IMG/VR virus record: IMGVR_UViG_3300028029_000006
Coordinates: 345,148-409,147 of that record
Source of the DNA: a virus
Length of the DNA: 64,000 nucleotides
Strand: one strand, 5' to 3'
Shown here piece by piece: positions 19,981-27,824 of the stretch. Made by a program: the position numbers and the translations under genes. Positions within the stretch are counted from its first letter, which is position 1. Every line of letters starts with the position of its first letter. A model generated the notes under the pieces. The model was not told the DNA's origin and searched no databases. It saw only the letters and a list, made by a program, of their open reading frames with translations.

Positions 19981-20014
19981 AAAAAAAAAGCTCATCAAAA
20001 AATGATAAGTTTTG
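19981..20014 (-). terminator. Intrinsic terminator ending the ncRNA array
   Basis: CUUAUCA/UGAUGAG hairpin followed by a U9 tract on - strand. Confidence 0.55.
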
Positions 20015-20021
20015 AAAATTT

Positions 20022-20096
20022 AAAATATCTGAGTTAAATAATCATTTTAAAGTATATATCAAAATGCTTGTGTGATTATTTTTTTATAGATATTTT
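20022..20096 (-). ncRNA. Minimal Y-RNA-like stem module without tRNA domain
   Basis: AAAAUAUCU/AGAUAUUUU terminal helix, AAAUAAUCA/UGAUUAUUU inner helix, CACAAGC and AACUC motifs. Confidence 0.6.
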
Positions 20097-20243
20097 GGCG
20101 GAGAAACCAGGAATCGAACCTGATGCTTGTAAAAGTAATTTAATTGTTTCCTTTTGATATGATCTTTGGGATACGAGGCAGAACTTTGTTTAATATTTAT
20201 CCAATTAATAGTTGGGTGCAGAACCATCCTGCTATATTTCTCC
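20096..20243 (-). ncRNA. tRNA-Y-RNA chimera: tRNA with stem module inserted in the variable loop
   Basis: GGAGAAA/UUUCUCC-G-CCA acceptor, D arm, anticodon-like arm, about 75-nt insert AAAC..CUCG..UACAAGC, T arm CAGG-UUCGAUU-CCUG. Confidence 0.75.
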
Positions 20244-20249
20244 AGATTA

Positions 20250-20384
20250 AAGGCATTCGAGTTAAAAATATTGTTTTATGTAATAACATACGGGAATTGA
20301 ACCCGTTACTTTCAGCCTTTTAGGCGGACGCTCTACCAGATGAGCTAATGTTGCTTGTAAATATTTTAAAGGTTTGAATGCCTT
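20250..20384 (-). ncRNA. Y-RNA-like RNA enclosing a complete unpermuted tRNA cloverleaf
   Basis: AAGGCAUUC/GAAUGCCUU and AAAAUAUU/AAUAUUUU helices, UACAAGC, then D, anticodon(AAA) and T arms, then AACUC. Confidence 0.75.
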
Positions 20385-20386
20385 AG

Positions 20387-20443
20387 AGCACTTGGAAAGG
20401 TTCGCACTTTCAATGCATGTTTGCATTATTCTAACAATCAAGT
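20387..20443 (-). ncRNA. Truncated tRNA-like element (acceptor plus T arm)
   Basis: ACUUG/CAAGU stem and GAAAG-UGCGAAC-CUUUC hairpin. Confidence 0.35.
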
Positions 20444-20468
20444 ATATTTTAAGATTTATTAAATCTAG

Positions 20469-20541
20469 GAGCGCGAGCAAGATTTGCACTTGCGACCTCT
20501 AGGTTATGAGCCTAGTGAGCTACTGACTGCTCCATCGCGCG
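20469..20541 (-). tRNA. tRNA-Met(CAT), initiator-like
   Basis: C1/U72 mismatch, CUAGG-CUCAUAA-CCUAG anticodon arm, T loop UGCAAAU. Confidence 0.85.
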
Positions 20542-24676: not shown

Positions 24677-24677
24677 T

Positions 24678-25175
24678 TTAATCCTTTAATATTCCTTTAT
24701 GTTTGAACTCTTCAATGAAATCGTTTGATAAATTTTGATATATAGATATATATTTCCATCTTATTTTATCTTGAAATTCTTTAATAAAATCTTCTGATAA
24801 TGTTTGAGAACAAGACACCCATCCCCAATCTAATTTATCTTGAAATTCTCTTATAAAATCTTCAGATAAATTCTGATAAATAGATATATTAAACCAATCT
24901 ACTTTATCTTTGAATTCCCTAATGAAATTTTCAGATATTTTTTGATAAAAAGATATTTCATACCAATCTACTTTATCTTGAAACTCTCTAATAAATTCCT
25001 CAGATAAAATTGATCTACTAGATATGTCATACCAAATTAATTCATATTGAAACTCCCTAATAAAATCTTCAGATAAATCTATCTTCTTAGAAAGGTGCTC
25101 CCAATTTATTATTTCAGAATGTTTTTTAAAACAAATTTTATCTTCTTTAGTAAACATTTTAATCTTCTTTTTCAT
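24678..25175 (-). CDS. 22-aa Trp-repeat protein
   Basis: Six repeats. Confidence 0.75.
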   Translation of the reverse strand: MKKKIKMFTKEDKICFKKHSEIINWEHLSKKIDLSEDFIREFQYELIWYDISSRSILSEEFIREFQDKVDWYEISFYQKISENFIREFKDKVDWFNISIYQNLSEDFIREFQDKLDWGWVSCSQTLSEDFIKEFQDKIRWKYISIYQNLSNDFIEEFKHKGILKD

Positions 25176-25517
25176 TGAATTCTTTATGAAAATCGGTGGG
25201 TAATTTTTGATATCTCTGCACCCAATACCACACCATTTTATCTTGAAACTCTCTTATGAAATTTTCTGATAACGTTTGGTTTAAAGATATATTGTGCCAA
25301 TGTACTTTATCTTGAAATTCTCTAATAAAATTTTCTGATAACGTTTGATATTCAGATATTTCATTCCACCAAACGTTATCTTTGAATTCTCTTATAAAAT
25401 CTTCTGGTAATTCTTGAAGAGATAGGCGTTTCCAATCAATTACGTTTTTAAATTCTTTAAAAAAACCCATTTTTCTTTTGATGAAAAATCAAATTTTTCT
25501 GGTTTATAAATTTTCAT
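25159..25517 (-). CDS. 22-aa Trp-repeat protein (N-terminus probably frameshifted at T7 run)
   Basis: Four repeats; upstream MKIYKPEKFDFSSKEKW is out of frame. Confidence 0.65.
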
Positions 25518-25650
25518 ATTATTAACTTTTAATTTTTACGTATTTCTTTCTTAAACTTAATTCAATTTTAGATATTTTACCCCTGCCTATTTTTTTATTT
25601 GTTTAGATTTAGCTATTTCAATAGCGTTAATGATTAATTCTTTTGGCGTG

Positions 25651-25899
25651 TCACTCATCTTTTTTTAATTCATGATATTCGTAGTCTTCTACACATACAA
25701 CAAGCCATTTTTTAACTAAACAAGCTACATCATCATTATTTAACTCATCAATAGCTTTAAGAACTTCTTTTGTGCTTATTTTATTTGATTTAACATCACC
25801 CCAAAAATTCCAAGTGTAATGCGTATCAGATTTTTCTCCTCTACTTAAAAGAGAACCAATAGCGTCAAATAAGTCTTTCTTTTCAAGAAGAGGATTCAA
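25651..25899 (-). CDS. Hypothetical protein
   Basis: ORF in operon. Confidence 0.45.
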   Translation of the reverse strand: MNPLLEKKDLFDAIGSLLSRGEKSDTHYTWNFWGDVKSNKISTKEVLKAIDELNNDDVACLVKKWLVVCVEDYEYHELKKDE

Positions 25900-25900
25900 T

Positions 25901-27775
25901 TTATGCCACCCACATTGGACGTTCCAATAATTCAGTCTTCATAATCAATTCAGCCAAAGAAACTCTCTTCTGAACAACTCTACCAATAGCTTCACGATTA
26001 ACTGGAGTTGATTGAATTAATGCAGACAATGTTCTTGGAAGCTGATAAACGTCTCCAAAAATATTTTCATCAATCATAAAACAAGGAATCCCTAAATTAG
26101 TAGCAGTATTTTGTACCGCAAACCTATTATAACCCCAACCTCCGTCAACCTTCAAAAAACCGAAAGCAACAGGATTTAAACCAGATTTATTAACCGCTCC
26201 TTGAAAATCAGCAGCACCCTCATCTCCAATAAAGATAAAAAGAACATCTTCATCTACACTTGGCTTATTATGTTGTAGAGCCCGAACACCACTTCCATAA
26301 TCTGTACCACCTCCAGCACTGTAATTACTAAAAGCTTGACGAACTCCAACACCAGTTGAGCTTCTTAATTTAACTTCCTGACCCATAGTATTGAAGACAG
26401 AAATGTGAATTTTATCCATAGGAAACGCTTGTAAAAACTTTTCCAAATAAACTTTAGCTTGCTCAATTGCACCTTGCATAGAACCAGAGATATCAACCAT
26501 AAAGTAAATTCTGATATTATCCATCTCCTTTTCAACAGCCGCCTTAACAGCCGTATCAGCAGCTTCTTGAAGTTTATCCTTCGTGCTTTGATTTTTAACA
26601 CGGGAAGCAATGTTAGCAGCCCTTGTGTCAGTTGCAGTTTTCATTGCAGCTTCCCAGCGATTTTTAACTTCAGGATCTTGCAAAAGACCTAACTCTTCCA
26701 ATGTCGGAGTTAGAATAATTAAATCCTTATCTGAAAGGCAATGAGCCTCAATTGAAGCTGCAACAATTGCTCGTGTCAACCCAACACTAGCTGGAACCAT
26801 ACCAACAATGCGCTTATAACTCAGAGGATTCTTAACAATTCGCTCACAAATTTCAGCTTCAGAAAGACCTTCCCATGTCTCAGCTGTTGCTACAGCCTTA
26901 CCAATAGCTATTTCACGTCTACCATCTTTGGCTTGAGCCTGCTTCCACCGCAAAGTTTCGAAGTATTTTGGACTAGAAGGCTTGTAACCAACTCGTCTTG
27001 ATAGTTCCATCACAGTTTTGCGAAAACCAGCTTTAACCAAACCATTTAAAAGCTTAGAATTATCTTCACGATAACGAATCCACTTTTCAACCGCTTTGTG
27101 CCAACGACCATAAAATGGCTTGCGAGCAGACCGCCCAAATCCAAGATCGCGATTAATTTCAGCAATCTCAGGAAGAGAAAGTAAATCATGAATTCGAAGA
27201 AGAAGTTTAGGGTTTAGATCTTTCTTATCTTTACGATCAACAGTTAGAATCATGGCTTCGCCAACATCACGAAAATCATCATCAAAGAAAACAACTTCTC
27301 CATTTTCTTTAATCGGAATTCCTTTGCGATTTTGAACAAGCATCAAAGCTGCCAAAACAACTTTAAGATCTCGATGGTCTTGTGTAAAAGCGTAGGATGC
27401 CCAGCGGGCCGAAAATTCATTATTCATTTTCCAAACGTCAGCAGCTTGCTTATACATCCACGCTGCGACCTCAGGATACAATCCGGGTTTACGATATTCA
27501 CCAACTTTTCGCGCACCATCTTGAACGGAATTATCATCTTGCAATTCTCCCATTCTAGTTTGGTGAACTTTTCGCCCAATTTTATTAAGACTATAAACAA
27601 TTTTCTTGCCATCTTCTTCTTTATGAGTAACCGGAATCCACTTAACTCCAATTGGGCTGGTAGCATCTGGAATAACTACACCACACCTTCCATGATAAAG
27701 ATGGTCTGTGTAAGATAATAGCATATTGATGGTCCGTTCTGCAGGACCGAGTGTTTCTGTTGTTGTATTGGGCAT
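25901..27775 (-). CDS. Helical-domain plus vWA protein, TROVE/Ro60-like
   Basis: About 420-aa basic helical region then vWA MIDAS (DISGSM, GGTD, GDE), the Ro60 architecture; Y-RNA-like array nearby; AGGAG SD. vWA is secure, TROVE is inferred. Confidence 0.65.
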   Translation of the reverse strand: MPNTTTETLGPAERTINMLLSYTDHLYHGRCGVVIPDATSPIGVKWIPVTHKEEDGKKIVYSLNKIGRKVHQTRMGELQDDNSVQDGARKVGEYRKPGLYPEVAAWMYKQAADVWKMNNEFSARWASYAFTQDHRDLKVVLAALMLVQNRKGIPIKENGEVVFFDDDFRDVGEAMILTVDRKDKKDLNPKLLLRIHDLLSLPEIAEINRDLGFGRSARKPFYGRWHKAVEKWIRYREDNSKLLNGLVKAGFRKTVMELSRRVGYKPSSPKYFETLRWKQAQAKDGRREIAIGKAVATAETWEGLSEAEICERIVKNPLSYKRIVGMVPASVGLTRAIVAASIEAHCLSDKDLIILTPTLEELGLLQDPEVKNRWEAAMKTATDTRAANIASRVKNQSTKDKLQEAADTAVKAAVEKEMDNIRIYFMVDISGSMQGAIEQAKVYLEKFLQAFPMDKIHISVFNTMGQEVKLRSSTGVGVRQAFSNYSAGGGTDYGSGVRALQHNKPSVDEDVLFIFIGDEGAADFQGAVNKSGLNPVAFGFLKVDGGWGYNRFAVQNTATNLGIPCFMIDENIFGDVYQLPRTLSALIQSTPVNREAIGRVVQKRVSLAELIMKTELLERPMWVA

Positions 27776-27796
27776 AATTTTCTCCTTTGTTTGCTT

Positions 27797-27824
27797 AATA
27801 TAACACCTCTAGGCGTGGCGTCAA
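27797..27824 (-). promoter_or_regulatory. Sigma70-like promoter of the TROVE-Ubl operon
   Basis: TTGACG-16nt-TATATT with extended -10 TG. Confidence 0.7.

Follow-up and report, generated by a model that had tools for sequence, protein, structure and literature searches.

A conserved gene set of phages and myxobacteria combines a divergent Ro60-like protein, tRNA-shaped RNAs and a candidate ubiquitin-like cascade

The window analysed here, a stretch of 64,000 bp that forms the end of the single 409,147-bp virus record IMGVR_UViG_3300028029_000006 (positions 345,148 to 409,147; 32% GC, 96% complete by CheckV), carries on its minus strand a co-directional run of genes for a 624-aa Ro60-like protein, a 311-aa protein, a JAB peptidase, an 89-aa ubiquitin-like protein (Ubl) and an E1 enzyme, together with an array of structured RNAs. 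This order and strand, proposed earlier from the letters of the DNA alone (hereafter the sequence-only reading), were confirmed in the list of open reading frames (ORFs). Comparison of loci revealed that the five-gene set is real and conserved, being present in this phage, in dozens of relatives and in some myxobacteria. With a probability of roughly 0.4, we consider the RNAs and all five proteins to be parts of a single unit, in which a Ubl is relayed from the E1 to a cysteine of the 311-aa protein and a Ro60-like particle determines its acceptor.

At least 1,978 homologues of the 624-aa protein were found, and the comparison covered 62 loci from viruses and 23 from cells, chiefly Myxococcota. 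Where at least 9 kb of downstream sequence was available, all four partners followed the Ro gene in the same order and on the same strand in 59/66 loci, a set that includes a handful of near-duplicates. Gene order and content were retained in phages and bacteria at 50–70% identity, many insertions notwithstanding. Phage and bacterial copies were intermixed in a quick tree, and within the Myxococcota the set was sporadic (2/150 genomes). Clustering of the neighbouring genes yielded a sole other recurrent family, a 181-aa protein that resembles a mobile HNH nuclease and was present in 23 loci. The Ro-like and 311-aa genes also occur in the GenBank virus Rctr197k, where a ThiF-like gene lies downstream of them and annotation is otherwise lacking.

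The RNAs are linked to the same genes. When k-mers downstream of E1 were counted without bias, ACAAGC-type and T-loop words came up, and RNAs of the types that we refer to as I or III were present in 46/53 loci, bearing out the expectation of the sequence-only reading that operon and RNA array would occur together in other phages and bacteria. Of 155 RNA units, 142 lay no more than 2.5 kb past E1 or ahead of the Ro gene, the usual position being next to E1, which stands at the other end of the set from the Ro gene; the loci themselves are located in tRNA arrays. Elsewhere in the 409-kb genome no RNA with the shared module (described below) was found, and in two 11-Mb genomes the RNA matches occurred solely beside the Ro gene. 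A type I model run on 150 Myxococcota genomes gave four weak matches in three genomes: a tRNA pair, a permuted element lacking the module motif, and two partial tRNA-arm matches. The permuted T-acceptor-D element without ACAMGC at L091:1501-1633, in a genome without this Ro clade, is possibly another Y-like RNA. At L074:9980-13357, a Ro-like gene and module RNAs are followed by an RNA uracil-5-methyltransferase in place of the cascade.

The shared module consists of a stem, an internal loop with CUC on one strand, a second stem and the single-stranded motif HACAMGC, which occurs five times in the 1 kb of the array against 0.2 expected (P 2e-6). Five RNAs of the array carry this module, with tRNA bodies attached in three geometries. 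Type III is a circular permutation of type I, with a tRNA body in normal order and an open 7-bp acceptor stem. In the module stems, pairing is kept while the sequence varies freely. In alignments not fitted to structure, with seeds chosen by motif and stem filters, so that the figures lean upward, pairing was 87.7% versus 58.6% in shuffled controls for type III, 95% versus 71% for type II and 90% versus 65% for type I, and type III covariation was 0.75 versus 0.24 in shuffled and at most 0.25 in slid controls. Covariation was also seen in the D and anticodon arms of type III, which lay outside the seed filters. Covariation across relatives thus upholds the proposal that the RNAs are chimeras of tRNA-like and Y-like parts with a common stem module. 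The AT-rich type III copies did not fold significantly as single sequences, and the support for type III is therefore comparative.

The module motif, written as CT-[TCA]ACA[AC]-GC (e.g. at 20790-20799), equals the anticodon loop of tRNA-Val with two further bases and is also matched by genuine tRNA-Val genes; ordinary tRNA-Val genes matching the regular expression CTTACAAGC were removed from the module set. CT precedes the motif in 72/158 cases, and is paired. The resemblance to the tRNA-Val loop may reflect ancestry or chance.

In the window, the array lies on the minus strand and starts with a type III RNA (20821..20953; 89.8 bits, a seed of the model), which combines a normal-order tRNA body and open acceptor stem with a module hairpin at the variable arm. 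It is followed by a type I RNA (20675..20820), in which a T arm, a loop-closed acceptor, a D arm and an anticodon-like arm come in permuted order and are closed by the module. Next, at 20543..20667, a tRNA-Lys(TTT)-like body without module was read by eye; it has a structured D-loop insertion of about 55 nt, was missed by ARAGORN and Rfam, has no homologue in related loci, and could be an intron-bearing or nuclease-evading form. An ordinary tRNA-Met(CAT) (20469..20541) is separated by 80 nt of small hairpins (20386-20466, folding non-significant) from a type II RNA (20250..20384; z -4.05), in which a whole tRNA body with anticodon AAA (20282-20354) hangs from the module by its acceptor end. 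A second type III RNA (20096..20243; 84.9 bits, model seed) ends with an encoded CCA, and a minimal RNA (20022..20096; z -3.74) consists of the module and a small hairpin without tRNA body.

Among relatives, the T-loop is invariant across the RNAs. The anticodon-like loop of type III has 7 nt in 48/55 cases, with a purine at position 37 in 44/48 and U33 in 30/48, and an anticodon-position hairpin is found in 28/44 type I RNAs. The anticodon triplets themselves are unconstrained: 20 different ones occur in 48 type III and 19 in 25 type II RNAs, they often begin with A, and close relatives differ. CCA is encoded in 31/105 type III RNAs. The module RNAs are shape mimics, not decoders. The sequence-only reading had proposed that they bait tRNA-binding proteins; baiting by anticodon identity is weakened by this drift, and because the T-loop is invariant while the anticodons drift, the constant elbow is the likelier bait. 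It is possible that diversifying anticodons act as decoys. A role for the elbow is in line with known Y RNAs, which tether Ro60 to an effector, the effectors of YrlA being predicted to read the elbow (10.1101/312249); YrlA itself has no anticodon loop, and its Ro module extends the anticodon stem (10.1101/312249).

The 624-aa protein (25901..27775, minus strand) is, judged by its structural model, a divergent Ro60 that represents a new Ro60 clade. The model (predicted local distance difference test, pLDDT, of 87) shows a helical TROVE-like ring and a vWA domain, with an additional N-terminal beta insertion at about residues 30-98. Its ten best Foldseek matches were all Ro60/TROVE structures (E 3e-8 to 4e-6), and VIA-align aligned it with 1yvp (Z 13.5, 424 aligned residues, root-mean-square deviation (rmsd) 7.0) and 2nvo (Z 12.5, 415 aligned, rmsd 5.2). 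Feature-level matches to TROVE clusters of the Atlas scored 0.91-0.93. The TROVE-vWA fold of the sequence-only reading therefore stands by Foldseek and VIA-align, with no match to Pfam TROVE (PF05731) in the sequence; that reading had staked itself on such a fold and on the co-occurrence of operon and RNAs, and the modelled fold and the co-occurrence were both found. The metal ion-dependent adhesion site (MIDAS) of the vWA domain is intact, D428, S430, S432, T491 and D518 being invariant, and the helical half of the family is basic (mean net charge +7 over residues 99-300). A complex prediction for the Ro60-like and 311-aa proteins scored 0.12, which gave no answer and was not used as evidence.

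The identities of JAB and E1 were backed by profile matches and invariant catalytic residues. The JAB/JAMM metallopeptidase (23093..23464, minus strand) matched Prok-JAB with E 2e-4 and carries the signature E...HxH...S..D, with E3, H50, H52, S61 and D64 invariant. The minimal ThiF/MoeB-type E1 (21734..22306, minus strand; E 1e-25) has an adenylation domain and an invariant Cys148, which aligns with the crossover-loop cysteine of MoeB; it lacks a rhodanese domain, and its closest relatives are MoeB, Uba4 and ThiF. The 89-aa protein (22332..22601, minus strand) behaves like a Gly-terminated, JAB-matured Ubl, an assignment predicted from sequence and supported by its invariant Gly, a JAB-linked tail and fusions at the Gly. 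Specifically, its conserved end RPK(T/V)PFG88 is followed by one extra Lys here and by a random tail that ranges from 0 to 61 residues in the family. The Ubl ended exactly at the Gly in 7/7 loci without JAB versus 11/58 with JAB (nominal P 5e-5), and the combination of JAB loss and tail-less Ubl corresponded to about four independent losses on the tree, of which at least 2 are forced. Moreover, in 29/31 long homologues the Ubl was N-terminal with unrelated cargo right after the Gly, and in one case this cargo was the E1 itself. Such precursors (P0271-P0301) have diverse C-terminal passengers (RyR-repeat PF02026, PF24043, PF26760, E1) and recall eukaryotic ubiquitin fusion precursors.

The 311-aa protein (23741..24676, minus strand) belongs to a new family and is a candidate E2-like carrier of the Ubl, as suggested by its model and an invariant G-x-Cys267-Leu. 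Besides two OB-like beta domains and a 40-residue helix/coiled coil, the model has an alpha/beta domain at the C-terminus, in which a helix and a beta-meander are followed by G-x-C-L and a further helix. Among distant representatives, Cys267 was conserved in 150/150 and Cys252 in 144/150, and both the G-x-C-L motif and the gene position fit an E2. Proteins of 656-2000 aa contained no fusion of the family, a result of little weight. In one genome (G207; L094/L096), the homologue lies in two reading frames, split 181/189 at the boundary before the Cys domain.

As one unit, these parts might work as follows. The RNAs fold as the module bearing a tRNA-shaped arm, as the covariation shows, and the Ro60-like ring would very probably bind the module and present the arm, to which its fold, charge and linkage point. 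In all likelihood, JAB cuts the Ubl behind Gly88, and E1 is the enzyme that adenylates the Ubl. The Ubl would then probably pass from Cys148 of E1 to Cys267 of the 311-aa protein, acting as a reduced or analogous E2, and this protein may contact RNA via its OB-like folds. In the least supported step, the Ubl would be transferred to a host protein that grips tRNA by its elbow or shape, for instance a defence nuclease attacking tRNAs or a factor of RNA processing, so that the particle would choose the substrate in the manner of an E3. In phages, the tRNA supply would thereby be protected during infection. A further version, an RNA-baited Ubl ligase in which interchangeable tRNA-mimic RNAs on the Ro60-like ring pick the Ubl acceptor and so form an RNA-programmed E3 against tRNA-targeting host factors, is tentative and somewhat doubtful.

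Several observations weigh against such a unit. Type I and III RNAs were missing from 7/53 loci, and the 89-aa protein had no Ubl profile or PDB sequence match, its beta-grasp fold being putative. For the 311-aa protein, no UBC/E2 match was found in Pfam, NCBIfam, PADLOC, a PDB profile search, Foldseek (PDB, viral), VIA-align or the Atlas; the best E2-fold relative of the whole model, an RWD domain, scored Z 4.3, which is within noise; and the HPN flap is absent from the alignment. Because the flap is missing and no UBC match was obtained, we class the protein as a candidate carrier and treat it here as outside the E2 family. Of the conjugation module that the sequence-only reading had called complete, E1, JAB and Ubl thus hold, whereas the E2 comes down to a motif without a UBC match, and a complete cascade is therefore putative. 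Furthermore, one metagenome-assembled genome (MAG; L074/G206) has the Ro gene and RNAs, and the 311-aa gene was not found in it. Finally, among recurrent neighbours there was no linked target gene or variable specificity gene.

This last point would suit a self-modification switch, in which no outside protein is tagged and the Ubl is attached to the Ro60-like or 311-aa protein, or docked on the MIDAS, so as to turn an RNA-protecting activity on or off, comparable to CBASS Cap2/Cap3 modifying its own cyclase. The Ro family is also rich in conserved lysines, and Glu42 of the Ubl is invariant, as is every MIDAS residue. Solved MIDAS-UBL complexes are available for vWA relatives (6qta, 8ql1), and the Ubl might complete the MIDAS metal site as in those of Rea1/MDN1. 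A switch of this kind nevertheless leaves the several RNA geometries per locus and the drifting anticodons unexplained. In addition, an intact MIDAS is normal for Ro60 proteins in which any Ubl is absent, and we regard the switch as unlikely.

Another alternative, which appears quite improbable, takes RNA as the acceptor: the Ubl would serve as a sulfur carrier (a Urm1/TtuB-like thiocarboxylate) or be joined by the 311-aa protein to the end of a tRNA or mimic, and captured RNAs would thereby be modified or marked. The MoeB/Uba4/ThiF kinship of the E1, the location of the loci in tRNA arrays, the open acceptor ends of type III and the two conserved cysteines of the 311-aa protein fit this idea, as do weak matches of the OB-like folds to RNA-binding S1/cold-shock domains. 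However, the OB region is not basic, and the OB pair matches the proteasomal ATPase interdomain equally well as RNA-binding proteins. Moreover, the phage genome has no TtuA/TtcA/TilS-family gene (a host enzyme being possible), and thiolase, rhodanese and desulfurase are absent among the recurrent neighbours.

Equally hard to credit is that two separate tools share a transcript, namely an ordinary Ro60-Y RNA particle (decoy, or PNPase tether like that of phage phiLo) and an E2-less SAMP/TtuB-type Ubl-E1-JAB set: the MAG without the cascade, the separate contigs on which Ro gene and cascade are found in G207, and phage Ro60-Yrl particles that bind PNPase without any Ubl (PMC12135203) are in its favour, but order and content are retained despite insertions and the RNAs mostly flank E1, at the opposite end to the Ro gene.

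Returning to the proposed unit of particle and cascade, its closest relatives on the RNA side are bacterial Rsr/YrlA (PMC4201824; 10.1101/312249), where a TROVE-like and vWA ring likewise stands beside RNAs with an end-paired stem and tRNA-like part; the permuted T-acceptor-D order of YrlA (RF02553) recurs here in type I only. In contrast to Rsr, the 624-aa protein (10-16% identical) lacks a Pfam TROVE match and has Ubl genes rather than rtcBA as partners, and the phage genome contains no canonical TROVE, RtcB or TtuA-family gene. Unlike YrlA, the RNAs keep an anticodon arm, attach the module to the variable arm or to the end of the acceptor, and come in four geometries with an often open acceptor end. 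The 5′ GNCGAA of YrlA (GNCGAAN0-1G motif) was seen in 1/53 type I 5′ ends, and against the Rfam gathering score of 69, type I here reached 17.9 bits; across three loci, no YrlA match lay over the module RNAs. Phage Ro60 proteins are already known, without a Ubl set (PMC12135203, PMC7824862). That of Thermus phage phiLo, with adjacent Y-like Yrl1/Yrl2 RNAs (PMC12135203; 9kop, 9l5y), gave the best Foldseek matches; it differs in its size of about 460 aa, its CGAA-motif RNAs and its partner, host PNPase, and a Ubl cascade is undescribed there.

On the cascade side, BilABCD (PMC10557695) and Bub (PMC11601596) resemble the set in having a C-terminally extended Ubl matured after Gly, an E1 and a second nucleophile-bearing protein, and Bil also in having a JAB. 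They differ in being host defence operons with a structurally clear E2 and without RNA or Ro60, whereas here a 190-aa minimal E1 is found and an OB-OB-coil-Cys protein occupies the E2 slot. CBASS Cap2/Cap3 (PMC10097602) similarly wires E1 and JAB chemistry to one dedicated partner; here there is no cyclase or E1-E2 fusion, and a separate Ubl is present. Components specific to Bil, Bub or CBASS gave no match in PADLOC/NCBIfam, where the generic E1 domain alone matched. The E2-less SAMP/UbaA/JAMM and Thermus TtuB/TtuC systems combine a small Ubl, a minimal E1 and a JAMM peptidase, as here. Compared with these, the present set has a single Gly (not Gly-Gly), no linked thiolase and a fixed Ro60-like link.

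A literature search, with subscription journals outside its scope, found no description of a Ro60/RNA particle coupled to a Ubl cascade. Known prokaryotic Ubl cascades (Bil, Bub, CBASS) are host defences in which RNA plays no part, and nucleases or ligases are the partners of known Ro60-Y RNA particles. If true, the proposed unit would be the first RNA-gated protein tagging in prokaryotes, encoded by a conserved and largely phage-borne set, and would open to test the question of which partners the tRNA-like domain recruits in bacterial Y RNAs. Even with loose coupling, the loci yield a new Ro60 clade, a new family of cysteine-carrier proteins and a new RNA family that joins one module to tRNA in three geometries, and each of these is of a size that suits reconstitution.

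With respect to transcription, a promoter-like site (TTGACG-16-TATATT with extended -10; minus strand, 27797..27824), identified purely by consensus match, lies 22 nt upstream of the Ro60-like gene, scores 10/12 with TG and is one of the best within 14 kb. The site of the RNA array (TTGACA-16-TATAGT; minus strand, 20964..20991) scores 11/12 and is also one of the best in 14 kb. Because the total promoter-like count was no higher than in shuffles (72 versus 64), only high-scoring, well-placed sites are taken to count. A terminator-like hairpin between them (21003..21062, minus strand) contains a 12-bp inverted repeat without mismatches and, after it, a T7 run (21010-21062); both sites and this hairpin were confirmed where the sequence-only reading had placed them. 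Its statement that one promoter leads the run is less certain: the core run is broken up by six non-conserved ORFs (82, 103, 165, 87, 137 and 197 aa), the last of which is preceded by a third promoter-like site (21709-21737). A terminator-like hairpin with T9 that closes the RNA array (19981..20009, minus strand) was read by eye and omitted by the promoter/terminator scan.

Between the core genes, three repeat proteins of one kind are encoded (22626-23039, 24678-25175 and 25159-25470, minus strand), both scanned members of which correspond to phrog_3532. Directly past the RNA terminator (19183-19952, minus strand) are two paralogous short repeat proteins of a GKLHRE type, one of which was scanned and had no Pfam match. 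At 1.5 kb beyond the array, a 720-aa ORF (16305-18467, minus strand), non-recurrent in related loci, fuses adenosine 5′-phosphosulfate (APS) kinase, ATP sulfurylase and a C-terminal M23 peptidase. Upstream of the operon, also on the minus strand, lie genes for a NUDIX hydrolase (28583-29107) and a metallo-beta-lactamase-fold protein (29634-31016). Outside the window, ARAGORN called a tRNA with the amber-suppressor-like anticodon CTA (G000 C1:250663-250734).

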